A DNA stretch of 64,000 bases from a virus. Its lineage: Duplodnaviria; Heunggongvirae; Uroviricota; Caudoviricetes. A model generated the notes under the pieces. It did no database searches and was not told the origin of the DNA. It saw nothing but the letters and a program-made list of their open reading frames with translations. The position numbers and the translations under genes are program-made. Shown in pieces: positions 8,466 to 35,802 of this stretch; position 1 is the stretch's first letter, and each line of letters begins with the position of its first letter. The DNA is taken from the IMG/VR virus record IMGVR_UViG_3300037312_000757. One strand, written 5' to 3'.

Positions 8466-9713
8466 TTATACCGCAGCTGATTTGCCTTCGTAAAGTACCT
8501 GCGGTTCTTTGCCTTCACGAATGGTTTCTTCTGTAATTACAACCTTGTTGGCACCAGTAGCCACAAGGTCAGGAAGCTTGAATTGAATTTCCATCAGCGC
8601 ACGTTCAATCACGCCACGCAGACCGCGAGCGCCAGTTTTGCGCTTGATGGCCAGCTCAGCTACTGCTTTCAGTGCTTCTGGTGAGAACTCAAGTTCGACA
8701 CCTTCCAATTTAAACATATTTGTGAACTGTTTCACAATTGCGTTCTTTGGCTCGGTCAACACACGTACCAATTGTTCGCTGCTCAGTTCTTGCAATGGTG
8801 CAATAATTGGCAAACGACCAATCAGTTCAGGAATGATACCAAAGTTCATCAAATGTGATGGTTCAACTTTACGCAGCAATTCGTTCTGATCTGCTGACAC
8901 TGTCAAGTCTGCACCAAAACCAAGACCACGGTTTTTGTTCAGTGCCTTCTCAACCACCTTGTCAACGCCCACGAAAGCGCCACCAACGATGAACAGAATG
9001 TTCTTGGTGCTGATCTTTACGAGTTCTGCGTTTGGACCTTTCTTGCCAGCTGGTGACACCATGATATCGGATCCTTCGATTATCTTCAGCAATGCTTGCT
9101 GAACACCTTCGCCGGATACGTCACGTGAACCAGAAGCCGAATCCTTCTTACTCTTCTTGTCAATTTCGTCCAAGTAGATAATACCGCGCTGAGCTTTCTC
9201 AACATCGCCACCTGCATTTTGTAGCAAACGACCTACAATGCTTTCCACGTCATCACCGACATAACCGGCTTCAGTCAAGCCTGTTGCATCAGCGATAGCG
9301 AATGGAACGCTAAGGCAGCGTGCAATTGATTGAGCAATCAATGTTTTACCTGAGCCTGATGGGCCCAGGATCATGATGTTGCTCTTGTCAATTTCCACTT
9401 CGTTGATTATGGGATTGGCCAATCGCATGTAGTGATTGTGGACCGCTACTGCGATGACCATCTTCGCATAGTCCTGGCCAATAACGTATTGATCGAGGAA
9501 TTCCTTGATCTTGGACGGACTTGGAATGTCGCCCAAATCTGCCGCATTGCTGTTTGCTGACTTACCGTCACCATTTACGTTCAGGATGCTGTAGCAAAGA
9601 TCTACGCATTCATCACAAATATGGACGCTAGGACCAGCGATGAGCTTTTTAACTTCTTGGGCTCCTTTTGTACAAAAGGAGCAATGTAGATTTTGGTCGA
9701 CGTCAGACATCAA
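8466..9713 (-). CDS. clpX: ATP-dependent Clp protease ATPase ClpX
   Basis: CSFC..CDEC zinc domain, GPSGSGKT, EAGYVG, RDVSGEGVQQALLK, LGF loop, TGARGLR. Confidence 0.96.
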   Translation of the reverse strand: MMSDVDQNLHCSFCTKGAQEVKKLIAGPSVHICDECVDLCYSILNVNGDGKSANSNAADLGDIPSPSKIKEFLDQYVIGQDYAKMVIAVAVHNHYMRLANPIINEVEIDKSNIMILGPSGSGKTLIAQSIARCLSVPFAIADATGLTEAGYVGDDVESIVGRLLQNAGGDVEKAQRGIIYLDEIDKKSKKDSASGSRDVSGEGVQQALLKIIEGSDIMVSPAGKKGPNAELVKISTKNILFIVGGAFVGVDKVVEKALNKNRGLGFGADLTVSADQNELLRKVEPSHLMNFGIIPELIGRLPIIAPLQELSSEQLVRVLTEPKNAIVKQFTNMFKLEGVELEFSPEALKAVAELAIKRKTGARGLRGVIERALMEIQFKLPDLVATGANKVVITEETIREGKEPQVLYEGKSAAV

Positions 9714-25039: not shown

Positions 25040-25558
25040 TTACGCAGCCTTGATCGGTTCATCTACGATCACCTTGTTGAAGATATAGATCGCTTGATGC
25101 GCGTTCTTGAAGTAGATGCCTTTGCCACCTGCCTTCTCCCACGGCTTCAAGTTGTAGATCATGTCGTCAAAAAGGATGTCACCCGGTGCCGTCATGTGAA
25201 GCGGCTTTTCCTTGCTCAAACACGTGATCACCTGGAGCTCCTCGCCGTGCATTTCACGGTAAGAAGGTCCAAGATGTTTCATGTAATAAGCGTGCTTGGC
25301 TTCAGCAGCCAAGTCGTAGCCGATACGCGGGCATCCAGTCAAGATCCGTGGTTTGTACGGAAGAATGGAACCCCAGTAATATTCCCAATCGGGCATAAGT
25401 GGCAGCTCTTCAAAGAACTGACCTTGGGTATCAGCGATCATCTGTTGCCAGACTTCGACTTTCAGGCCCTTGATGTTGACACCGAAGCGTTCCTCGAAGC
25501 CAAGATCGAAGTTAGCCACAACACCGTCACCGTCTGAAAACACACAACCACTGAACAT
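25040..25558 (-). CDS. HAD-family 5'(3')-deoxyribonucleotidase
   Basis: DGDGVVANF, ILTG.P, K, DILFDD, W..AGG.GI. Confidence 0.8.
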   Translation of the reverse strand: MFSGCVFSDGDGVVANFDLGFEERFGVNIKGLKVEVWQQMIADTQGQFFEELPLMPDWEYYWGSILPYKPRILTGCPRIGYDLAAEAKHAYYMKHLGPSYREMHGEELQVITCLSKEKPLHMTAPGDILFDDMIYNLKPWEKAGGKGIYFKNAHQAIYIFNKVIVDEPIKAA

Positions 25559-25683
25559 TCTTACTTCCCCTTGTTAGTTAGACAAAGCAATCTGTAAGTA
25601 TCCCAAGCCCATCGTAAACTGATCGTAAAAGCAGATCATCATGTAGATGATCAACACACAAATTAATGTGTCACGAACAGCTT

Positions 25684-25875
25684 TCATACGATTATGCCAT
25701 TGCTCTCGAAGGCCAGGCCGGCAGCTCGACCTTCAAACACTTTACCCTGCCGGTGTAACTGAAGCACAAGGTTTGTGCCGACTACAGCCGCTTTTATGGT
25801 GTTTGCCGTCATTGACAGCACGTCTGCAAGAACTGTTTTACCAGTCTGTTCACACGTCACTTTAATTTGGTCCAT
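25684..25875 (-). CDS. Hypothetical protein
   Basis: GAGG SD; TTGACT-17-TATAGT promoter. Confidence 0.65.
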   Translation of the reverse strand: MDQIKVTCEQTGKTVLADVLSMTANTIKAAVVGTNLVLQLHRQGKVFEGRAAGLAFESNGIIV

Positions 25876-25930
25876 AGTCGTCCTCGCGCCATTTTTCTAC
25901 TATAAAGACTGGCAACAACCAAGTCAACTG

Positions 25931-26161
25931 TTATTTATCAGTAGGTGGTTTGCGTTCGACTACTTTAGTGACCATTTCGTTAGCACTGGCCGGATCGTTG
26001 ACATAACGAGTGATGACGACACGCCCTTCGTCGTCAATGGACCATTGCAGGAGGTCGTCAACTTCAAGACCAAGTTCGGTGATGATTTCTTGTGGCAGAT
26101 CGAGCATCATTTCACCACTTTCTTCATCAAAATATGTTTGTGCTGTTTGGGCTTGTCCCAT
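25931..26161 (-). CDS. AbrB/MazE-like DNA-binding protein
   Basis: GEMMLDLPQEI..ELG..VDD.L.W..D..G.V.I. Confidence 0.7.
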   Translation of the reverse strand: MGQAQTAQTYFDEESGEMMLDLPQEIITELGLEVDDLLQWSIDDEGRVVITRYVNDPASANEMVTKVVERKPPTDK

Positions 26162-26162
26162 T

Positions 26163-26474
26163 TTATTTTTCTTCCACTGCTGTAATTTGTTCGTAAAACA
26201 TCAACATGAACATAAAGGCTTCGCTCTCCGTTTCGAAGCCAATACCGTCACTTTTCAACTCTGGGTGATACGTGATTCTCGACGTCACCACATTTGACGT
26301 TGCTCGCCATTCCCTAACGGAATCATACAAACACCTTTTCTTTGGCAAGTAATTGACGAAATAATCCCGGTACCCTTCCACACGTCCCGGCTGGTGTCGT
26401 TCATCCCATGTCACCCACCAACTGAAACGACTATTCTTCGTCCCAGATGGCATTTGGTATTGCCTCAGCTTCAC
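26163..26474 (-). CDS. FKLxW-family small protein
   Basis: GFETESEAFMFMLMF. Confidence 0.7.
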   Translation of the reverse strand: MKLRQYQMPSGTKNSRFSWWVTWDERHQPGRVEGYRDYFVNYLPKKRCLYDSVREWRATSNVVTSRITYHPELKSDGIGFETESEAFMFMLMFYEQITAVEEK

Positions 26475-26731
26475 TGGAACACCTCGTGATGACAGAAAGT
26501 CATGTAGAAGTGAATTGCTTCTATCTCTTCTCGGAAGCCAAAACCAGATAGCCCACCAACTCTAGACTTCAGCAGACAATTATAGGAATGAACTCTGATG
26601 AACTCCTGCATTTCGTTAATGGCTTTAGAGACACGTTTGTCCTTAGCGCCAAGTTCCGAAATGAAGTTGTTTGTTTCCCAAGTGACCCACCACTTGAAAA
26701 ACATTTCGTGTTCATCCTTTGTTATTTTCAT
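26471..26731 (-). CDS. FKLxW-family small protein
   Basis: GFREEIEAIHFYMTF; shares WWVTW with the previous gene. Confidence 0.7.
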   Translation of the reverse strand: MKITKDEHEMFFKWWVTWETNNFISELGAKDKRVSKAINEMQEFIRVHSYNCLLKSRVGGLSGFGFREEIEAIHFYMTFCHHEVFQ

Positions 26732-27033
26732 TTTGCTAACGGTATATCGAGATGAGTCAATCTGAACAGAACCGCATCTGTTTCATTGTCAAACCGCAAT
26801 ACAGCATGGTGTCCAGTTTCTTTGCTGAAATCAACAGTCCAACCCATTATACCAACATGTTCAGTAATCCAAGCTTTGATTTCAGCTTCAGCTCGAGCTT
26901 GATTATATTTTGCCCAATTGATCGAATGACGGCTAATGGCCAGTGTAGTTATTTCACCCCGAAGATGAGCAGTAGTGGGCCATTTTAATGGCTTGACATT
27001 AGAAATGTCGAATGCGTAAGTCACAGCATCCAC
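26728..27033 (-). CDS. FKLxW-family small protein
   Basis: WITEHVG...DAVLFRLT. Confidence 0.75.
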   Translation of the reverse strand: MDAVTYAFDISNVKPLKWPTTAHLRGEITTLAISRHSINWAKYNQARAEAEIKAWITEHVGIMGWTVDFSKETGHHAVLRFDNETDAVLFRLTHLDIPLAK

Positions 27034-27293
27034 TTCAATTTAAAATACGTCGCCAATTTATCATCTTTAATGAGCAAATATGCACACACTCGACTAAGAT
27101 GAGACCATTCAAAATGAACAAGCCAGGTATCATCGCCTTCTGATGTAGCAAGTTCTTCGGTCAACCACTTTCTGACCTTGCCTGCCCGCAAGATATTCTC
27201 AGCTGATTTTAGAGATTTGTATTGATTCCATTCAACATCAGGAACAATGTGTGAAATCTCAAACAACCAACCATCTTGTTCTTGTTCTACCAT
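27021..27293 (-). CDS. FKLxW-family small protein
   Basis: WLTEE...LATYFKLKW. Confidence 0.75.
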   Translation of the reverse strand: MVEQEQDGWLFEISHIVPDVEWNQYKSLKSAENILRAGKVRKWLTEELATSEGDDTWLVHFEWSHLSRVCAYLLIKDDKLATYFKLKWML

Positions 27294-27559
27294 GTCAACA
27301 TGAATTCGAACGCATCATTATAACTGGTAAATCCAATCCAAGTGCCATCCGCATAAACCCGAACTTCACCTTCCATGTTCGCCTGGACCCACAACCAGAA
27401 ATCGTGCTTGAAACTTTCGTGCTCCCATTCCAAGTCAGCATTCACGAAAAATTGACATTTGCATGGCCTGCCGAAGTCGACGAAACGTTCGGGAGCCAGC
27501 AACACATCTTTGGAAATCTCAGAATTTTTCGCAATAAAAGCTTGGCGTTCGTAAATCAT
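27287..27559 (-). CDS. FKLxW-family small protein
   Basis: GGAG SD at MIYERQ; WVQAN...DAFEFMLTW. Confidence 0.72.
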   Translation of the reverse strand: MIYERQAFIAKNSEISKDVLLAPERFVDFGRPCKCQFFVNADLEWEHESFKHDFWLWVQANMEGEVRVYADGTWIGFTSYNDAFEFMLTW

Positions 27560-27650
27560 GTTTTCTCCAGAGATCATCGTGAAGCAGAAATGGCACGAAT
27601 GCCAAATTGCTTCGTTAATTATAACAAATTTGTAAAATGGCAACTAGACG

Positions 27651-27923
27651 TCAGAACGAGTCTTTCACCAGGGCAAATTCAACTGCAATGGTGTCATCCT
27701 CGATTTCTATTTCGTAGATGAAGCACCAGTTTCTGAATTTACCAACATTCGTCTTAATCGTCATATTCCAACCGTCACCTTCTACGGTGTCGATATTTGG
27801 ACTAAACGAATAATCTGCTCTATTGGTTGTCCTTGCGACTAACCAATCAATTACTTTGGGCTTGAATGAAACGATATTGTCATCATCCATGCCCTTTGTG
27901 ATACAAAAAACATTCACAACCAA
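27651..27923 (-). CDS. FKLxW-family small protein
   Basis: IEDDTIAVEFAL. Confidence 0.72.
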   Translation of the reverse strand: MVVNVFCITKGMDDDNIVSFKPKVIDWLVARTTNRADYSFSPNIDTVEGDGWNMTIKTNVGKFRNWCFIYEIEIEDDTIAVEFALVKDSF

Positions 27924-28210
27924 TCCCGTATGATAAGTGCGAGCGCTACAGCTAACACTTCATCATCGATCTCGAATTCGAGATGCATCATGGTGTTTTC
28001 AAAGTCGAATCGGTAATACATGTTCCAGCCTTTACCTGGTAGCTTGTCCAAGTAAAATTCATCCTCAATACCCTTAGACTCCATTTCACCAACACATGGC
28101 CCAATGTTTTCGGTGAGCCAGCTGATTGACTTGTTGATGAATCGGTGGTGTCCTACAGGAACATCATTTACTTTGAACGTTGCCATTGGTGACTGTCCGC
28201 TTAATTTCAT
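27914..28210 (-). CDS. FKLxW-family small protein
   Basis: WLTENIG, GKGW, IDDEVLAVALAL. Confidence 0.75.
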   Translation of the reverse strand: MKLSGQSPMATFKVNDVPVGHHRFINKSISWLTENIGPCVGEMESKGIEDEFYLDKLPGKGWNMYYRFDFENTMMHLEFEIDDEVLAVALALIIRDWL

Positions 28211-28442
28211 CTAGCCAACGTAACTTGAAGGCTAATGCTTCTGTTTCATTCCACAGTTCGACTTTGATGTAGCGATCTTTCCAGTCGCCACTATACACTA
28301 AACCACTTTGCCAAGCGTACTTTTTAATTTTTGTTTTGGGATCAACTTCAATCACCGACGGGCCGATGTTCGCGTGGAGCCACCGCTCAACTTCGACGGG
28401 CAGGTCACGTACGGTGAAGGGGATGAAGAATGTTGTTGTCAT
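28164..28442 (-). CDS. FKLxW-family small protein
   Basis: WLHANIG...EALAFKLRW. Confidence 0.75.
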   Translation of the reverse strand: MTTTFFIPFTVRDLPVEVERWLHANIGPSVIEVDPKTKIKKYAWQSGLVYSGDWKDRYIKVELWNETEALAFKLRWLDEIKRTVTNGNVQSK

Positions 28443-28495
28443 GTGCAGTTGCCAAAGTGGGTTGCTATTCTACTAGCGAGAATTGGCAACCGCAA

Positions 28496-28753
28496 TTAAG
28501 GCATTGACAACTTAAACGCTACTGCTGATGTGGCGTCTTTAAAGAGGAAGATGTTGAAGAAGCTCAGATATTCTTCTGGATCTGACGTTTGCATTGCTAA
28601 GGATTCAAAGTCCACAGTATTGAAGACATCAACCAGAACTTTATGCTCAAACCCATGCTGCCGAGCGATCCTAACCATATCAGAAATCTTGAAGGGTGCA
28701 GGCAATAGTCTACGTCGTTCTGGATCAGCATCAATCCATTGTCTGAGCTTCAT
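28496..28753 (-). CDS. FKLxW-family small protein
   Basis: FKDATSAVAFKL. Confidence 0.72.
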   Translation of the reverse strand: MKLRQWIDADPERRRLLPAPFKISDMVRIARQHGFEHKVLVDVFNTVDFESLAMQTSDPEEYLSFFNIFLFKDATSAVAFKLSMP

Positions 28754-28754
28754 A

Positions 28755-29039
28755 TCAGTACCAACGCTTCTTCACGTGTTCCTTGAGTTTGTCAAGGTTA
28801 CACATCAGCTTGAACTTGACTGCTTGAACACTGTCGTCGAAGTAAACCATGTCTTGGCAGATGACGAAAGATTCATAGCCGAGGTTTTCTATGCACCAAG
28901 ATACCATACGAGCCACTTTCACACCTTCTGGCATCTTCATGCGTTCGTATTGCTCGCATTTGTCAAGCTCTGCTCGTACCTGGCGTACGGGCATTTTTTG
29001 CTCTTTAAACAGCTGGTTGAAATGTTCGCGCACGTTCAT
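28755..29039 (-). CDS. FKLxW-family small protein
   Basis: WCIENLG...FDDSVQAVKFKL. Confidence 0.75.
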   Translation of the reverse strand: MNVREHFNQLFKEQKMPVRQVRAELDKCEQYERMKMPEGVKVARMVSWCIENLGYESFVICQDMVYFDDSVQAVKFKLMCNLDKLKEHVKKRWY

Positions 29040-29082
29040 CTTATTATTCTTATTGGCGTTTTGAAGCGGATATTTTAGCGCT

Positions 29083-29322
29083 TTATCCGTCGGCAGCAAA
29101 GAGCTCGTTGCCAATTTCCACGACGGTGCAAGCAAAACCCTTGTCATGCTGGAAGTCGCGGAACACTACATCGTTCTGTTGATATTCACGAACTTGCACC
29201 CAATGCCGAGCCACCGTGAAAATGCACAGTTCACAGTAATGCTCGACGATGAACGCCTTGCAATCTTGCTTTGTCATGTCGAAGTAGTTGCTGTCTATTG
29301 CAAGGCAGTTTAACACCAACAT
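29083..29322 (-). CDS. Hypothetical protein within the array (no FKLxW motif)
   Basis: 79 aa ORF filling a gap in the array. Confidence 0.5.
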   Translation of the reverse strand: MLVLNCLAIDSNYFDMTKQDCKAFIVEHYCELCIFTVARHWVQVREYQQNDVVFRDFQHDKGFACTVVEIGNELFAADG

Positions 29323-29329
29323 GCAATCA

Positions 29330-29689
29330 TTATCCGTTTTTTCTGCGTTCTTCTAGATACTCAGGGAAGAACAGCTTCCACTGAACCGCAAGGGTTGTGT
29401 CTGTGAAAAGGATGTATGAACCACCTTCATGATCAGACGACGTTTCGATCACATAGTCGTAGGTGGAGACTTTTTGAGAATTCATCCAGTTGTATAGATA
29501 CTCAAGATCATCGTAGCTGTATTCTGGTACAGCGTCAGGAAGCACGTTTCCCGGCGCTCTGAAACGTGCCATGACATAACCTGCTTGCTCGGCAGCTTTT
29601 TGAAATTCAGGGCTGTAGGCGAGGCCAAATTGATCAATGGCGACCTGCCACCATCTGAGCGCATCTATTTTATTCATAACCATATGCAA
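29330..29689 (-). CDS. FKLxW-family small protein
   Basis: FTDTTLAVQWKLF. Confidence 0.72.
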   Translation of the reverse strand: MHMVMNKIDALRWWQVAIDQFGLAYSPEFQKAAEQAGYVMARFRAPGNVLPDAVPEYSYDDLEYLYNWMNSQKVSTYDYVIETSSDHEGGSYILFTDTTLAVQWKLFFPEYLEERRKNG

Positions 29690-29957
29690 GCTTAAACGTC
29701 ATTGCGTCATTTGAGTGGGTGAAGAAGATCCGCTTGTCGCCCTTGGCATTAGCGTACTCATCACTCTCCCAGTAATCATCTTCACCAACGTTGTCTTCGA
29801 GCCAGCACAGCATGTCGAAGTGCTTTTCGGGTGGCCAACCATCGAAGTTGATCATGACGAACGGATACTTCATCGACATCAACTCGCTATCAATTTCGTC
29901 CGAATTGATCATCAAGCCAACGGCGGCAAGGACTCCCACGATTGCTCCCAATGACAA
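29670..29957 (-). CDS. FKLxW-family protein with N-terminal hydrophobic helix
   Basis: WLEDNVG...DAMTFKLAY. Confidence 0.75.
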   Translation of the reverse strand: MSLGAIVGVLAAVGLMINSDEIDSELMSMKYPFVMINFDGWPPEKHFDMLCWLEDNVGEDDYWESDEYANAKGDKRIFFTHSNDAMTFKLAYGYE

Positions 29958-30011
29958 AAGCCATATGATAGCACCATATGGCTTTTCGATGATAGCTATT
30001 TCCTATTGCAA

Positions 30012-30257
30012 TCAGGAGAACATTAGCTTGAAGATCAATGCATCATTTTCATCTTCGAAGGCATAGAGCAGGCTAACATTCTCCCAGATCGAAATCGGTT
30101 CAATGAACACTAGCGTGAACTTGGTTCCAAATACCCAAGCGTATTGGTGCGTGTCAGTCTTGATGCTGTATTCTTTATACTGATCGATTAGCAGCATTGC
30201 AGCCAGCTCATCGCAGTAATCGACGAATTTGTTAGCCGTCATTTCTACAAAATACAT
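30012..30257 (-). CDS. FKLxW-family small protein
   Basis: FEDENDALIFKLMF. Confidence 0.75.
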   Translation of the reverse strand: MYFVEMTANKFVDYCDELAAMLLIDQYKEYSIKTDTHQYAWVFGTKFTLVFIEPISIWENVSLLYAFEDENDALIFKLMFS

Positions 30258-30258
30258 G

Positions 30259-30525
30259 TCAACTCCACATCAATCGTGCCATCACAACATAACTGTCATC
30301 ATTGATTAATAGAATGACCTTCTCTGAACCCCATTCACGTATGACTTTCCAGCCCTTTCCACGCACGACAATCTTGTCACTCTTGATTTGCACGATCTTT
30401 TGCGGGCCGATGTTTTTACGAAGCCAAACGGCAATCTCTGGTGCCTGTTTGGTGTCTTGATCGACCCATTGCCCCATCCAAAGGTAGATGAACGGCAAGT
30501 GCTTGGTGATGTCGATCGTGTGCAT
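30259..30525 (-). CDS. FKLxW-family small protein
   Basis: IDIT, WLRKNIG, GKGW, VMARLMW. Confidence 0.75.
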   Translation of the reverse strand: MHTIDITKHLPFIYLWMGQWVDQDTKQAPEIAVWLRKNIGPQKIVQIKSDKIVVRGKGWKVIREWGSEKVILLINDDSYVVMARLMWS

Positions 30526-30526
30526 A

Positions 30527-30853
30527 TTAGAAACTAAGTTTGAATAAAACTGCCAGTTCGTCGTCTTCGATGTGAACTCGTTTCGAGAAGAAAAAGAATT
30601 TGTCGTTGGTGGCCTGCTCTTTGAAATTGCGATTTGCGAAGTCTATTCGAACCTTTCTCGAACAACGATCTTTATAGCATTCGTATTGCATGTATTCATA
30701 CTTCCAACCTTTGCCATTTACCGTATAGGTATGGCGAGTATGATTACCATCAATTACCGGACCGACGTTTTCTGACAACCAAAGAATCATTTCATCAAAT
30801 GATTGTTCGAATAAGTAATCGTGAACGTCGATCTCGTTTTTCATCAAAGCCAC
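30527..30853 (-). CDS. FKLxW-family small protein
   Basis: WLSENVG, GKGW, IEDDELAVLFKL. Confidence 0.78.
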   Translation of the reverse strand: MALMKNEIDVHDYLFEQSFDEMILWLSENVGPVIDGNHTRHTYTVNGKGWKYEYMQYECYKDRCSRKVRIDFANRNFKEQATNDKFFFFSKRVHIEDDELAVLFKLSF

Positions 30854-31104
30854 CTAAGTTTAAACATGAGGACATCTCGTTCATCTTGTAACTCTAAAGC
30901 CCAGGAACGTAGACGAGCCTCTGGATGTGCCAAACGCAGCGTGTATGATACTATAAGAAGTTGCCATCCGCACCCAATACTGGCTGGCCACGGAATAGTG
31001 TAGCGGACAACTGGCCCAACTGATTCAGATAACCAGCTGACCAGATCGTGAGTTTGAGAGAGTGATGCGGAAGTGACGAGATCCGATATGTCTATAATTC
31101 CCAT
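30844..31104 (-). CDS. FKLxW-family small protein
   Basis: WLSESVG, GCGW, DVLMFKLRW. Confidence 0.78.
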   Translation of the reverse strand: MGIIDISDLVTSASLSQTHDLVSWLSESVGPVVRYTIPWPASIGCGWQLLIVSYTLRLAHPEARLRSWALELQDERDVLMFKLRWL

Positions 31105-31355
31105 GATAGCTTGAACTGAATCATATGAACGTCATGATCAAATTCAAGGTAGAACTGGGTTTGTATGGAGCCATCGCCAATTTTCTGATACAGCTTGACA
31201 ATACGCCAGCCGTCACCAACAGCGGGAACATCGTTGTCGAACCACCAGGCATTTGCGTAATGAATGGTGCCAACGTTTTCGTCTAGCCATTCAAGCAATG
31301 CTTTTGGGAAGAAAATTAGTTCGTTTTTAGTGATTGAAATTGCGCTCACAGACAA
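31092..31355 (-). CDS. FKLxW-family small protein
   Basis: WLDENVG, GDGW, IQFKLSW. Confidence 0.78.
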   Translation of the reverse strand: MSVSAISITKNELIFFPKALLEWLDENVGTIHYANAWWFDNDVPAVGDGWRIVKLYQKIGDGSIQTQFYLEFDHDVHMIQFKLSWEL

Positions 31356-31558
31356 GCCAGCTTGAACATGATCTCAAGTGCTGGCTCATCAATGTAAACT
31401 TTCAATTCGTCGATAGTGACAATCATCAACCAACCGTCACCCTGATACATGCCGTGCTTGCAGCGAAACAATTTACCGACATTGGTAACTAACCATTCGG
31501 TAAATTTTTGCAGTTCGACACTAGAGGTAGATCGGTTTGTTAAATGAATCATGACCAA
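31346..31558 (-). CDS. FKLxW-family small protein
   Basis: WLVTNVG, GDGW, IMFKL. Confidence 0.78.
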   Translation of the reverse strand: MVMIHLTNRSTSSVELQKFTEWLVTNVGKLFRCKHGMYQGDGWLMIVTIDELKVYIDEPALEIMFKLACL

Positions 31559-31797
31559 ATCAGCTTAAACATAACTGCCAGCGAATCGTCTTCGATTTCC
31601 ACGAAGTACGATGTGCGGATGTCGCCAGCAGCATTGCGTACATCATAACGTTTGACCGTCCACCCATCACCATAAGCAGTCTGGATGTGAATAGTCTTTA
31701 GTCGTCCGATGTTATCAATAAGCCAATGCTTGATTGGTTGCCAATGTTCTGTCTTAGCGTCACCTACCATGTATTTAGATATATCGATAGGTGTCAT
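31549..31797 (-). CDS. FKLxW-family small protein
   Basis: WLIDNIG, GDGW, LAVMFKLIW. Confidence 0.78.
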   Translation of the reverse strand: MTPIDISKYMVGDAKTEHWQPIKHWLIDNIGRLKTIHIQTAYGDGWTVKRYDVRNAAGDIRTSYFVEIEDDSLAVMFKLIWS

Positions 31798-32045
31798 GCG
31801 AAACTCAATTTGAATGCTACGGCAAGCGTGTCGTCATCGAACTCAACACACCATTGAATTCCCTTCTTGCGTGAAGGGTCTTGATTGAGTCGAGGAAACA
31901 TGCGCCATCCTTCGCCGATACGATCAGCGATATCCAAGGACGGACCCACGTGTTCCTTTAGCCATGAACGCATTTCACGTCTCTTACTGGCGTGTTCCGA
32001 AATGAAATATCGTTCGAGAATGAAATCAATAACGACTAATGCCAT
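31794..32045 (-). CDS. FKLxW-family small protein
   Basis: WLKEHVG, GEGW, DDDTLAVAFKL. Confidence 0.78.
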   Translation of the reverse strand: MALVVIDFILERYFISEHASKRREMRSWLKEHVGPSLDIADRIGEGWRMFPRLNQDPSRKKGIQWCVEFDDDTLAVAFKLSFA

Positions 32046-32396
32046 TTATAGCCACCGCAGCTTAAACATCACTGCCAGTTTAGCATCTAAAATATGAAGG
32101 TAATACCGAGATTCTGATATCGTTTTTGAGTATGGCAAAGCTGCCCAAGGTTGACCAGGCTTGCCACCCCATTCATGCTCAGGTATCGGGTTTTGCATAT
32201 AGACGGTTTCGTATGTAATCGCCCAGTGTTCGCCACGATTTCTGATTTGTTGAGCATGCCCAGTCTCGATCAACTCAAAACTAGGAAGTCCAAGAATTTC
32301 TGGTCCTATGTTTTCGTGCAACCAAGCGAATACTTCGTTATCTGAGTCCTTGACTAGCAGATATTTCCACATCAAGTCCGTGATGTTTATAACCAT
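32046..32396 (-). CDS. FKLxW-family small protein
   Basis: WLHENIG, GEHW, LAVMFKLRW. Confidence 0.78.
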   Translation of the reverse strand: MVINITDLMWKYLLVKDSDNEVFAWLHENIGPEILGLPSFELIETGHAQQIRNRGEHWAITYETVYMQNPIPEHEWGGKPGQPWAALPYSKTISESRYYLHILDAKLAVMFKLRWL

Positions 32397-32623
32397 ATAA
32401 GCGAAAATCTCCGTTCGCTTTGTTCTTCAACGCATTCAAGGAAGAATCGTTCTTCACGTTCGTGAATGACCCACCCACGACCACACCAACGACCTTCGAC
32501 TGGTGCTTCAGGTTTGCGTTTTCCACCGATTTGTTCGTAAAGCCAATTCACGCACATTGGAATTGACTGTGAGTTGCGACCATTAAGGTGCTTGGTGATA
32601 ATTCTTGTAATTTCTATAGCCAT
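32387..32623 (-). CDS. FKLxW-family small protein
   Basis: WLYEQIG, GRGW, FSLIW. Confidence 0.75.
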   Translation of the reverse strand: MAIEITRIITKHLNGRNSQSIPMCVNWLYEQIGGKRKPEAPVEGRWCGRGWVIHEREERFFLECVEEQSERRFSLIWL

Positions 32624-32853
32624 TTCAATTTGAATGCCACTGCTAGTGTGTCATCATCAATATTTACATACCATGTATGACCACCTTGGGTGAATTCAAC
32701 CTCGATAGTCCAACCCACACCAGAGTACGAAAACAGCATCTGGCCTGAGTCGTGTTGAGGACCAATATCCATCTTCAATGCAGTCAACAAAGCTTGCAGA
32801 TCGCCTGCTGGATTTTCTGGTCCGATGTGAGACGTTACGTCAATCAGGGCCAT
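32614..32853 (-). CDS. FKLxW-family small protein
   Basis: GVGW, DDDTLAVAFKLKW. Confidence 0.78.
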   Translation of the reverse strand: MALIDVTSHIGPENPAGDLQALLTALKMDIGPQHDSGQMLFSYSGVGWTIEVEFTQGGHTWYVNIDDDTLAVAFKLKWL

Positions 32854-33158
32854 GTCAGCTTAAACATCACGGCCAATTCAGGGTCATCAATAGTGACGCA
32901 CCACTGATAACTCGTTTCCATAGGCTTGTCTGACTCATTTGAGATCGCCATTTTGTTCAATGACCATCCTTCACCACAACGACCAATACCAACACCGTCA
33001 TAAATTGGATCGTAACCCTGCATCGCTCTGCTAACATTCGTTTCCAACCACTCAACCATCTCGTAATAGTTGTCGAACAGAATGTCGCTGAATGCAGGGT
33101 ATAAGTCAGGAGTATTTTTCTTGCTCAGATATTTCTGAACATTAATATAGTTCTTCAT
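32844..33158 (-). CDS. FKLxW-family small protein
   Basis: WLETNV, GEGW, LAVMFKLTW. Confidence 0.78.
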   Translation of the reverse strand: MKNYINVQKYLSKKNTPDLYPAFSDILFDNYYEMVEWLETNVSRAMQGYDPIYDGVGIGRCGEGWSLNKMAISNESDKPMETSYQWCVTIDDPELAVMFKLTWP

Positions 33159-33439
33159 CCGCAGTGATCGCCATACTTGAGTTTATACATAACAGCATGG
33201 CTATCGTCATCGATCGTCAATGCGATACCGCTTCGATTTTCATCGTTAGACCGATTGATGTCAATACGCCAGCCATAACCATAATATGGCAAATAGCGGT
33301 TATTGTCAGATATTGTCCAACCAACATTATCGTCGAGCCAATCAATTACTTCGACGTAGATTGATGGCTGCGGAGCTTTGTTTATGATTGAGACGCTGTG
33401 GTAGTGCTCATACCACATTCTGGTGATGTTGAAGTCCAC
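33155..33439 (-). CDS. FKLxW-family small protein
   Basis: WLDDNVG, GYGW, HAVMYKLKY. Confidence 0.78.
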   Translation of the reverse strand: MDFNITRMWYEHYHSVSIINKAPQPSIYVEVIDWLDDNVGWTISDNNRYLPYYGYGWRIDINRSNDENRSGIALTIDDDSHAVMYKLKYGDHCG

Positions 33440-33440
33440 G

Positions 33441-33728
33441 TCATTGTTCTTTTATTGGGACGTCCGGCACAATCATTCTAAAGTGAACGGCATCTGCATC
33501 ATTCTCTAGATGCAAATAGCGTTTCATTGTTACATATCCATGTGAATCGGGTGGTGACATCACCCATTCAATCTCCCATCCATCCCCTTTTGCTGGAGAT
33601 GCCGGCCGTCCGCTTGGCAAGCGGCGTGTTGCTTGCGCTCCGGTTGTCGGATATGCTGGGCTTATGTGTGCTTGACACCATTCGCTGACAACTCTTGCGC
33701 TGATATTTGAGACGTCGAAAGTGACCAT
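33441..33728 (-). CDS. FKLxW-family small protein
   Basis: WCQAHI, GDGW, DAVHFRM. Confidence 0.75.
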   Translation of the reverse strand: MVTFDVSNISARVVSEWCQAHISPAYPTTGAQATRRLPSGRPASPAKGDGWEIEWVMSPPDSHGYVTMKRYLHLENDADAVHFRMIVPDVPIKEQ

Positions 33729-33961
33729 ACTATTTTGAATTGTAGTTCGTCAAGTTCATTTTCGAACTCGAAGCAGAAGCGCAGACCACCACGGCCACGA
33801 ACGCGCTTCAGGCTGGCTAGCCAACCGTCACCGATATGAATTCCTCCGGCCATTTGCTTGATTGCGCCGATGTTCGACGCACACCAGTCAATCATCTGGT
33901 CGAAACGCAGCGGATCGGTCCCGTTTGCGTTGTCCATCACAAAGTCAGTCACATCGATCAT
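33662..33961 (-). CDS. FKLxW-family small protein
   Basis: GGAGG SD; WCASNIG, GDGW, LQFKIVW. Confidence 0.75.
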   Translation of the reverse strand: MIDVTDFVMDNANGTDPLRFDQMIDWCASNIGAIKQMAGGIHIGDGWLASLKRVRGRGGLRFCFEFENELDELQFKIVWSLSTSQISAQELSANGVKHT

Positions 33962-34016
33962 AATACCTCCGAAGATCATTCATTATAGCACAAATGAAGG
34001 ATCATTTGTAGGAGAA

Positions 34017-34421
34017 TTACAGCCAGCGCAGCTTGAACATTGCGATGCCTTCCTTGTCGCGGAACTTGAGTGTCAAGGTATCGCGCATCAACGAATTATT
34101 GTTGAAATACGTGAGGTCGAGCCACTTTGCATGCCAGCGATATTTACCCGATGCGCCGCCTTCACCAAGTGTCTCACGGCACCATTCGACCTTCTCTGCA
34201 AAGTTTTCGACAATCACGTGCCATTCATTTCCAACTTGCCTGATTTTCATCAGTTGTTCTTCCCGAGCTTGTAGATCCAATTGGTGACGATATTGCTGAA
34301 GCCACGCCGAGGTCATCAAAGTAGACTTACCAGTATTTCTCGCTCCCCAAATGACAGCCTGTCCAGCAGGAATACCATTTTGCCAATTTGGTGGAATCCA
34401 TGCACCTGGGTTGTGACTCAT
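34017..34421 (-). CDS. FKLxW-family protein with an N-terminal Walker-A-like segment
   Basis: GARNTGKST; WCRETLG...IAMFKLRW. Confidence 0.72.
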   Translation of the reverse strand: MSHNPGAWIPPNWQNGIPAGQAVIWGARNTGKSTLMTSAWLQQYRHQLDLQAREEQLMKIRQVGNEWHVIVENFAEKVEWCRETLGEGGASGKYRWHAKWLDLTYFNNNSLMRDTLTLKFRDKEGIAMFKLRWL

Positions 34422-34672
34422 AAAATGCTCATCTTGAATTGTACGGCTTCGTTGTCATCTGGTACCGACACGAAAAGTTGATACGTTCTGGATGATGACT
34501 TCACCACATGCAATACTCGGGCGGAGCTAATCGTTTGGAGGAATTCATCAAATTCTTCACGCTCACTGCTATCAACTTCTAGCAGAAAGTTGTAGCCGAT
34601 CCTGAAACCATGCCGCATCCAGAATTCACCCTGGTCGACATGTTTACTCCATTGTAATTTAATACCTTTCAT
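34418..34672 (-). CDS. FKLxW-family small protein (first gene of the array)
   Basis: DDNEAVQFKM. Confidence 0.7.
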   Translation of the reverse strand: MKGIKLQWSKHVDQGEFWMRHGFRIGYNFLLEVDSSEREEFDEFLQTISSARVLHVVKSSSRTYQLFVSVPDDNEAVQFKMSIL

Positions 34673-34742
34673 GATTCTTATGGTGAAATGGCAAGGGGTT
34701 TACCTTGCCATTTTACTACGACTATGATCTCACACAACGATA

Positions 34743-34934
34743 TTATGGCTTTTTCTTGCCATACATGTTGTTCATCAAACGCTTCGCCCAGGCTTCTGGG
34801 TCTTCATCCGTGCTCTTCTCGCGCGCTTCCAGTGCTTCCTTAGCAAGACGTCGCGTTTCCTCGCTCATCGGTACAGGTTTCCCTGACCTGAAACGCTCTA
34901 ATGCTTCGCCAAACTTCAACTTCGTTGGTTTCAT
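34743..34934 (-). CDS. Hypothetical protein
   Basis: ATGA overlap with the upstream gene. Confidence 0.55.
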   Translation of the reverse strand: MKPTKLKFGEALERFRSGKPVPMSEETRRLAKEALEAREKSTDEDPEAWAKRLMNNMYGKKKP

Positions 34935-35224
34935 TTGGCCAAAGCTTCGGATGCGATCTCGACAATTTCATCGGCATCACCCAGGGCAGTCTTTTCTGTT
35001 GATGCGGATGAGATGCGCAGGATGTCAACCAGTGCCTTCTTGAGGCCTGGTACTTGACGCTCGAGGAACTCTTTGCCAGCTGCACCTTCGATCGCATGAG
35101 CGATCAGTTCGACGAAATCATTGTACTTGATGTAGTCGCCGTTCTCATCCATGTACAGGCCCTTGTTGCCATCATCGTCGACCTGACCGAGGGTGTATCG
35201 TTGCGGAGTAATCATGTAAGCCAT
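34931..35224 (-). CDS. Hypothetical protein
   Basis: RY.......M.E.GDYI.Y.D motif seen in small phage proteins. Confidence 0.65.
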   Translation of the reverse strand: MAYMITPQRYTLGQVDDDGNKGLYMDENGDYIKYNDFVELIAHAIEGAAGKEFLERQVPGLKKALVDILRISSASTEKTALGDADEIVEIASEALAK

Positions 35225-35802
35225 CCTGGTTTTCTAAATTCAGTGGGTTCTGCCTGGGTTTCATCGCGCTCCTCTAGAGTCCACGAGCTATCAGAAAGCG
35301 TCTCAACCTCATTGAATTCTTCGTGAGGAATTGGCTCTATGACTGGAGTCGAGTTGATGCCAATTGTAGCATCGTCTTTATGATTGGCGTTCATATTAGT
35401 AACCATATCTTTCAATACTTGGTTTTCTTCTCTGATAAGGGAGATTTCGTATTGTAGTTTGGCTACTTGTTCTTCGAGGGGATCGATTTCCTCTTCGATG
35501 TTCATCATGAAGCCGTGTTCGAGCAGGAGGATGTTGGCGAATACGTACAGTCTTGTGGTGAAGAGTTCTTTGGTGACGTTATTGTGATCGATGTGTTGTC
35601 CATCGTGTGTGGTGCCACCGAATACTTTGGCAGCTAGATCCAGGACATTGTCTTTTGCGATGGGTGGGAGGACTAGGCCGCTTTTCTTTACTTGGTTTTC
35701 GAGCATATTGATGAGGAACTTGGTGATCTTCTCCTCATAATTTTCATCGCTCGCGTCGCGGTTACCAAGCACCCGCATTAGGGTGTTGATTATTGATTTC
35801 AT
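35212..35802 (-). CDS. Hypothetical coiled-coil protein
   Basis: GGAG SD; 196 aa. Confidence 0.65.
   Translation of the reverse strand: MKSIINTLMRVLGNRDASDENYEEKITKFLINMLENQVKKSGLVLPPIAKDNVLDLAAKVFGGTTHDGQHIDHNNVTKELFTTRLYVFANILLLEHGFMMNIEEEIDPLEEQVAKLQYEISLIREENQVLKDMVTNMNANHKDDATIGINSTPVIEPIPHEEFNEVETLSDSSWTLEERDETQAEPTEFRKPGWLT

Follow-up and report, generated by a model that had tools for sequence, protein, structure and literature searches.

In a tandem array of small genes on the minus strand of a 64,000-nucleotide (nt) stretch of phage DNA (hereafter, the window; IMG/VR record IMGVR_UViG_3300037312_000757), six genes begin on an ATG that is made up of the last base of one codon and the first two bases of the conserved tryptophan (Trp) codon close to the end of the gene upstream (hereafter, A-TGG). 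The source genome (G000) is a complete virus record of 523,836 bp with direct terminal repeats, representing a 524-kb soil phage, and the window is the minus strand of G000:C1:168518-232517. The array holds about 30 genes (70-134 aa) arranged back to back, and alignment places most of them in one paralogous family, with an N-terminal I-D-I-T strand, the internal motifs WLxxNxG and GxGW, and a C-terminal motif, D-D-x-x-A-V-x-F-K-L-x-W, that ends on the Trp in question. The reading that we favor, and regard as probable, is that the six ATGs are real starts placed on this conserved codon, that they are a long form (7, 10, or 13 nt) of the stop/start overlap found elsewhere in the same phase, and that translation of the paired genes is coupled.

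A first-pass annotation of this DNA had proposed that the terminal Trp codon doubles as the start codon of the next gene, and this holds at the six ATG junctions (Table 1), both in their location and in that the ATG is the sole start before the conserved strand. All six A-TGG triplets were confirmed at the positions reported there, and each ATG begins the downstream open reading frame (ORF) of a family gene, with no alternative in-frame start ahead of I-D-I-T. In the AlphaFold2 model of a family protein (pLDDT 92.7; beta-alpha-beta3-alpha order), this N-terminal strand comprises residues 2-5 and belongs to the sheet. We consider the six ATGs to be genuine start codons. At five of the junctions the Trp codon lies 0-2 codons ahead of the upstream stop, and at the sixth (33728) it lies 20 codons ahead. 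At the latter junction, the part of the upstream gene (33961-33662) that extends past its Trp seems to be a frame-shifted shadow of the conserved N-terminus of the next gene, produced by read-on after the original stop was lost. This tail (WSLSTSQIS...) resembles the tails of its orthologs (WPILTSHLQ and WSNSTSQIT).

The same junctions were compared in related phages. A 290-kb IMG/VR contig (loci L084 and L089; hereafter, L084) carries an array that is colinear, gene by gene, with that of the window, at 66-80% nucleotide and 25-83% protein identity, and a more distant version lies between the same flanking genes on a 224-kb metagenome contig (loci L085 and L086; hereafter, L086). Further arrays (e.g., L091) were retrieved using a degenerate DNA pattern for DDxxAVxFKLxW, whereas the 80 loci fetched through the flanking GMP reductase gene, which is too conserved for this use, came mostly from unrelated phages. 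The A before TGG is retained at 5/5 orthologous junctions in L084 (33728, 32853, 32623, 32396, and 31104) and at 3/3 in L086 (33728, 32623, and 31104); elsewhere in these arrays, third codon positions are just 42% identical. The 10 nt of the 32623 junction are identical in both relatives. The 33728 junction reads gcA TGG in L084, with a 52-nt overlap, and atA TGG in L086, with a 31-nt overlap, and the 31104 junction reads tcA TGG aat ttc TAG and gtA TGG gga TAA, respectively. In L084, the 32396 junction reads atA TGG tta TAG, and that at 32853 (atA TGG tca TAA) is the start of a 29-codon gene remnant, described below.

Some junctions depart from this pattern. At the position of 32396, after the MAIEIT gene, L086 has a different downstream gene and reads atT TGG tta TGA, an ATGA overlap. 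Because the junction was rebuilt as ATGA where the downstream neighbor differs, we regard the junctions as adapted to the gene pair and not as plug-and-play elements. For the 32853 gene, the start of the ortholog has moved within its frame, from -10 to -4 (window 32853 vs. L086 9765). At the position of 27293, L084 reads tcC TGG TAA and the downstream gene is absent; L086 reads tcG TGG TAA, the GTG of which heads a family gene, a possible ortholog.

The first-pass annotation had suggested looking for excess synonymous conservation at the motif, and an excess of A was found in the pooled family, not in G000 alone. Using expected counts derived from the amino-acid-specific codon usage of G000, which was applied to the other phages as well, we found A before the motif Trp in 13/22 genes of L086 (P=1e-4) and in 38 of 77 family genes from 12 non-redundant sources, paralogs and orthologs included (19.2 expected, P about 1e-6). 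A stands ahead of the motif Trp in 6/14 genes of the window and in 6/9 of L091. The codon before the motif Trp is the rare ATA in 5/11 cases of Ile, AAA in 6/6 cases of Lys, and GTA in 4/5 cases of Val, and 25 of the 38 pooled A-TGG ATGs begin an ORF of at least 60 codons. The synonymous position that makes the ATG is under selection across the family at large. Among non-family ORFs of G000 with a TGG in the last four codons, A is found at the background rate (17/89), and 9 of these 17 near-terminal A-TGG sites also begin a long ORF, including one just upstream of the array (35224; Table 1). The phage also employs such starts in non-family genes that happen to have a Trp close to their end.

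The position of these starts can be understood from the genetic code. In the phase of the ATGA and TGATG overlaps, an NTG start spans NNN-TGN of the upstream gene, an ATG start spans NNA-TGN, and TGN can only be Trp, Cys, or a stop. An overlap of more than 4 nt in this phase therefore has its start on a Trp or Cys codon, and nearly all overlaps in the array share the phase. The conserved Trp of the family lies 1-2 residues from the protein end, usually followed by a conserved Leu. In a family that keeps both the terminal Trp and the residue after it, an overlapping start could only sit on that Trp codon, and the approximately 10 shared nt would hold both protein ends fixed. The commonest module is A-TGG-CTA-TAG, which is read as W-L-stop in the upstream gene and as M-A-I/L in the downstream gene.

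Double use of the sequence has left marks on codon choice. TAG is the stop at 11/23 short A-TGG junctions in four arrays vs. 30/393 long ORFs, an excess that appears forced because the third and fourth codons of the downstream gene are xTA-GAx (I or L, then D or E). Examples of TAG are found at 32614, 31092, and 27287, and at the L086 junctions J9 and J11-J14. With Arg as the residue preceding the motif Trp, the codon chosen is AGG or CGG in 9/18 cases (11% expected, P=4.5e-5), and the common Arg codons CGT and CGC together make up just 3/18. The resulting GGTGG is followed by an ATG 5-8 nt later in 8/9 cases and 2 nt later in the ninth. Instances of AGG/CGG-TGG occur at 30850-30855 and in family arrays of L084, L086, L095, and L100. 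This would be a second use of the fixed TGG, in which AGG/CGG-TGG creates a GGTGG that resembles a Shine-Dalgarno (SD) sequence ahead of starts at -1 to +8.

The 30 junctions of the array were classified by their geometry. In addition to the six A-TGG junctions, nine are -4 overlaps (5 ATGA and 4 GTGA), seven lie at -1, 0, or +1, two overlap in the other phase (-8/-14 and -23), and six have a spacer or are of unclear type. In total, 24/30 overlap or fall within 1 nt, and adjacent ORFs are co-directional. GTG and TTG versions of the Trp-codon start had also been reported (30853, 27033, 31558, and 27923), and these did not withstand comparison, given that a better start in the same frame lies 6-9 nt downstream at each (Table 1). 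The GTG at 30853 sits within AGGTGG, an arrangement that is conserved in L084. At the ortholog of 31558, L084 reads atC TGG tcA TGA; i.e., the TTG is gone and the ATGA is retained. In L086, the ortholog of the 27917 gene starts at GTGA/TGATG, and the tail ahead of it lacks a Trp; the L084 ortholog of the 27024 gene begins M-R-S-F-D-I-S, which fits the shorter N-terminus. The starts of orthologs thus agree with the shorter N-termini for the 30844, 27917, and 27024 genes. Any TGG that follows A, G, or T yields an NTG triplet, and the four GTG/TTG versions are best explained as artefacts of the longest-ORF rule.

One of the few true spacers in the array precedes the MIDVT gene (Table 1). Its TATAAT, GGAGG, and ATG are conserved in L084 (approximately 8500-8560), and it is likely an internal promoter with an SD that divides the array into sub-operons. 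The longest-ORF start of this gene, 33979, is probably wrong. A scan for promoters and terminators gave no signal above the shuffled level.

Table 1 Junctions and other features of the small-gene array in the window (sequences read 5' to 3' on the strand given)
Feature	Position	Strand	Sequence	Overlap (nt)	Reading
A-TGG start	33662..33728	-	gtA TGG tca	67	Start of gene 33728-33441 (MVTFDVS); overlaps the putative read-on tail of gene 33961-33662
A-TGG junction, dual-coding	32844..32853	-	acA TGG ccc TGA	10	T-W-P-stop upstream; M-A-L in gene 32853-32614
A-TGG junction	32614..32623	-	aaA TGG cta TAG	10	K-W-L-stop upstream; M-A-I in gene 32623-32387
A-TGG junction	32387..32396	-	atA TGG tta TAA	10	I-W-L-stop upstream; M-V-I in gene 32396-32046
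A-TGG junction	31092..31104	-	tcA TGG gaa tta TAG	13	S-W-E-L-stop upstream; M-G-I-I in gene 31104-30844
A-TGG junction	27287..27293	-	acA TGG TAG	7	T-W-stop upstream; M-V-E in gene 27293-27021
Corrected start	30842..30855	-	AGG TGG ctt TGA TG	1	Likely start ATG 30844 (-1 overlap), 5 nt behind SD-like AGGTGG from Arg-Trp codons
Corrected start	31549..31558	-	atT TGG tcA TGA		Likely start ATGA at 31552, not TTG 31558
Corrected start	27914..27923	-	gaT TGG ttG TGA		Likely start GTGA at 27917, not TTG 27923
Corrected start	27021..27033	-	aaG TGG atg ctG TGA		Likely start GTGA at 27024 (M-T-Y-A-F-D-I-S), not GTG 27033
True spacer	33961..34016	-	TATAAT-like box, GGAGG, ATG		Likely start ATG 33961 (MIDVTDFV), not ATG 33979
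Non-family junction just upstream of the array	35212..35224	-	ggA TGG ctt aca TGA	13	End of a 196-aa gene; start (MAYMITPQ) of gene 35224-34931
Tandem array of small genes	26163..34672	-			Defined by ORFs and alignment

The last 11-16 nt before each A-TGG start are occupied by the F-K-L-x codons and contain no GGAG, GAGG, or AGGA. The phage does use SD sequences: GGAG is 6.7-fold enriched before long ORFs in G000, and the few array genes that are preceded by a spacer bear GGAGG (e.g., 33961). We propose that the A-TGG cistrons, having no ribosome-binding site of their own, would be served by ribosomes coming directly from the upstream gene. The commonest spacings of coupled genes are -4, -1, and -8, with others at least ten-fold rarer (PMC10666635), and the efficiency of coupling or reinitiation declines with overlap, falling to nil at -25 (PMC12548453). 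At five of the six junctions, the start and the upstream stop are 7-13 nt apart, i.e., in reinitiation range and outside the common window of -8 to +6 (PMC10666635), and at the sixth (33728) the distance is 67 nt. The 7-13-nt overlaps would most likely be served by termination-reinitiation, at reduced efficiency; at 33728, with its 67-nt overlap, unfolding or independent initiation would be needed. The proposal of the first-pass annotation that these genes are coupled and have no ribosome-binding site of their own was borne out for the missing SD at all six starts, and the distances at five of the six are consistent with coupling.

Several points weigh against coupled translation at a selected start. 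The overlap at 33728 is conserved (67, 52, and 31 nt in the three phages), and it cannot represent simple termination-reinitiation because the efficiency of this process is nil at -25 (PMC12548453). The RNA folds predicted around the six starts are inconsistent (z from +0.66 to -2.23), giving no general support for unfolding; the ATG is paired in a stem only at 32853 and 27293, and the fold around 33728 is not significant (z=-0.02). Genome-wide in G000, among genes defined with a hidden Markov model (HMM), A precedes the motif Trp in 7/21, which is not significantly above the 4.7 expected (P=0.16). In the pooled test, the paralogs and orthologs counted are not independent of one another, and the codon usage of G000 is applied to other phages. 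Coupling remains the most likely explanation of the starts, their conservation, the selection on the synonymous site, and the lack of an SD, all of which are observed, and is itself inferred from the sequence.

A gene remnant in L084 bears on how far this explanation can be extended. At L084:9921-10010, the ortholog of gene 32853-32614 is missing its middle, leaving a 29-codon in-frame ORF (MVIISLENSHWMLNIDDDTLAVAFKLKWL, followed by a stop) that begins on the A-TGG of the upstream gene and ends on that of the next gene. The last 52 nt of the remnant are about 92% identical to the array of the window, in a region that is otherwise approximately 70-79% identical. This mini-ORF may act as a relay through which the series of coupled cistrons stays continuous, bearing in mind that a deletion ends in frame in one of three cases by chance and that a single such remnant was found. 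A wider version of this idea, which we find possible but doubtful, is that the whole array is a selected relay: dozens of SD-less cistrons in series would use the invariant Trp codon as an anchor, the codon before it would make either a start or GGTGG, and decayed genes would persist as in-frame mini-ORFs solely to pass ribosomes on. If true, such a relay would fix the proportions of many variable paralogs with few promoters.

The starts could also be real with initiation independent of upstream translation, in which case the AU-rich F-K-L codons (TTYAARYTN) would serve as an unstructured, SD-less leader. Consistent with this alternative, the sequences 5' of the A-TGG starts are AU-rich, most folds at the starts are not significantly structured, and the A-TGG at 33728 has been retained in three phages with the upstream stop lying 67, 52, or 31 nt further on, distances beyond the reach of reinitiation (PMC12548453). 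However, most A-TGG starts lie 7-13 nt from a stop, the L084 remnant stays in frame through to the next junction, and array genes with true spacers bear GGAGG, showing that SD initiation is available and is used in the absence of overlap. We therefore consider independent initiation to be unlikely as the general explanation. A programmed -1 frameshift at TTTAAAC was also examined and rejected: TTT AAA CTN is read as whole codons, in the register XXX YYY Z and not X XXY YYZ, and each downstream ORF begins on an ATG of its own and encodes a conserved N-terminus, which also disfavors a frameshift.

The first-pass annotation had gone further and interpreted the FKLxW end as a dual module for coupling and recombination, at which cassettes would be added, lost, or shuffled in a self-assembling array. 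Whole units have indeed been gained or lost with respect to L084 (three genes are found only in the window and two only in L084), and one of the five unit indels (D) is exact at a stop/start boundary. Nevertheless, when array order and indel breakpoints were compared with L084, as had been suggested there, gene order proved colinear and none of the five indels breaks inside FKLxW. Indel A is an internal in-frame deletion that preserves both junctions, and B extends from the upstream stop to a spacer that precedes a conserved TATAAT and GGAGG. Indel C falls between two start regions, D coincides precisely with TAAtATG/TGAcATG and involves a gene with the ending ARLMWS, without FKL, and E has left approximately 15-20 nt of the 5' end of a gene as a spacer stub. 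The identical 3'-end DNA noted earlier (15 and 13 nt) does exist, but it is no more than the shared peptide gives by chance. When the codons of 20 peptide tails were redrawn synonymously, the longest shared run reached at least 15 nt in 23% of trials (P=0.23), and three or more pairs of at least 13 nt arose in 9% (P=0.088).

Other evidence points in the same direction. The paralogs are old, being at most 43-49% identical, and adjacent copies do not resemble each other more closely than copies far apart do (permutation P=0.48 and 0.15). No array indel was seen in the contigs of two DNA samples from the rhizosphere (a single low-depth joint with a 29-nt side was disregarded). The complete 523,836-bp genome yielded 0 matches to the tyrosine recombinase profile PF00589, with controls found in 14/14 genomes, and a search for attC-like repeats returned 9 scattered inverted repeats, none of them recurrent at junctions. 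We regard the array as old and stable, and recombination at the motif as very improbable given breakpoints off FKLxW, old paralogs, and the lack of an integrase or attC-like repeat in these searches. The least credible alternative is that chance and annotation alone made the pattern, with a TGG after A, G, or T giving an NTG that the longest-ORF rule then picks; this is correct for the four GTG/TTG cases and in keeping with the lack of A enrichment in G000 alone and with the background rate in non-family ORFs (17/89), but it is refuted for the six ATGs by the conservation and synonymous-site tests, since these ATGs have no alternative start and their A is retained by orthologs and overrepresented in the family as a whole.

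The small-protein family is large. An iterated HMM search found 57-70 copies in several arrays of the 523,836-bp genome, with matches at 1e-8 to 1e-20, and an exhaustive profile search of 1.8 billion proteins (E<=1e-3) yielded 400 cluster representatives, most of 70-125 aa. DNA and protein searches against Pfam, PHROGs, and INPHARED gave zero matches. Matches in BFVD and the ESM Atlas are uncharacterised viral proteins only, and judging by the nearest Atlas clusters, the family looks viral. A Foldseek search of the PDB with the family model gave no match at E<=0.001, and the best VIA-align score (Z=6.0) reflects only a generic alpha/beta sandwich, with no convincing solved relative. Two other arrays of the same family in G000 (369.4-376.1 kb and 459.2-470.7 kb) contain longer members (110-160 aa). 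Most of these members have F, Y, M, L, or V in place of W at the motif position, and junctions are mostly ATGA or GTGA. The terminal Trp is therefore a subfamily feature, because most members of the other arrays lack it. The G000 phage is present in two rhizosphere metagenomes. A near-identical phage in the second rhizosphere study (run X2; checked over 25500-35500) has a very high contig depth, about 11,500 vs. 1,680 in the sample from which G000 probably came, and the contigs of run X2 break every few hundred bases, which suggests microdiversity.

These junctions provide a clean natural case in which the conserved end of a protein family and the start of the next gene share 10 bases. This explains why these phage arrays abound in overlaps of 7, 10, and 13 nt, rare otherwise, why the junctions are rich in rare codons (ATA, AGG, and CGG) and in the rare stop TAG, and why longest-ORF gene callers mis-start some of the neighboring genes. 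It also gives start-annotation rules for hundreds of small genes in huge phages, as well as a natural set of junctions for testing how far back terminating ribosomes can reinitiate. Neither this family nor a start junction on a Trp codon turned up in our literature search.

Among known systems, integron cassette arrays resemble the array in that many small ORFs, most of them promoterless, follow one another in the same orientation, and in unit-sized gain and loss between relatives. In contrast to integrons, there is no integrase, there are no attC-like repeats at junctions, the cassettes are paralogs of one family, and their order is conserved between phages. Relay mini-ORFs such as the mycobacterial MIRUs (PMC12548453) are comparable to the 29-codon remnant of L084, which could hand ribosomes to the next gene, except that the remnant is a decayed gene rather than a mobile repeat and is one case. 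The long-overlap coupling of the MS2 coat and lysis genes by RNA unfolding (-50; summarised in PMC12548453) recalls the 33728 junction, which has a conserved start and overlaps by 67 nt in the window and by 52 and 31 nt in the relatives; here, however, no significant structure is predicted around the start (z=-0.02).

The closest parallel is coupling at stop/start overlaps (ATGA at -4, TGATG/TAATG at -1, and NTGNNTGA at -8; Huber et al. 2019, PMC6728339; 2023, PMC10666635; Brown & Wade 2025, PMC12548453), with which the array shares a co-directional, operon-like arrangement, the phase of the -4 and -1 overlaps, and SD-less downstream starts a few nt from a stop, and orthologous starts slide between -4 and -10 in one frame. 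It differs in that the overlaps measure 7, 10, and 13 nt, lengths reported to be at least ten times less frequent than -4, that the ATG lies on a conserved sense codon, and that coupling is a proposal here. The Trp-codon start makes up 6/30 junctions in this array and 11 of approximately 35 in L086. It is a selected but fairly ordinary long stop/start overlap, and not a recombination device or a new genetic system, that is distinguished from the ordinary overlap by its length class, by the conserved sense codon on which it sits, and by its recurrence across a large phage gene family.

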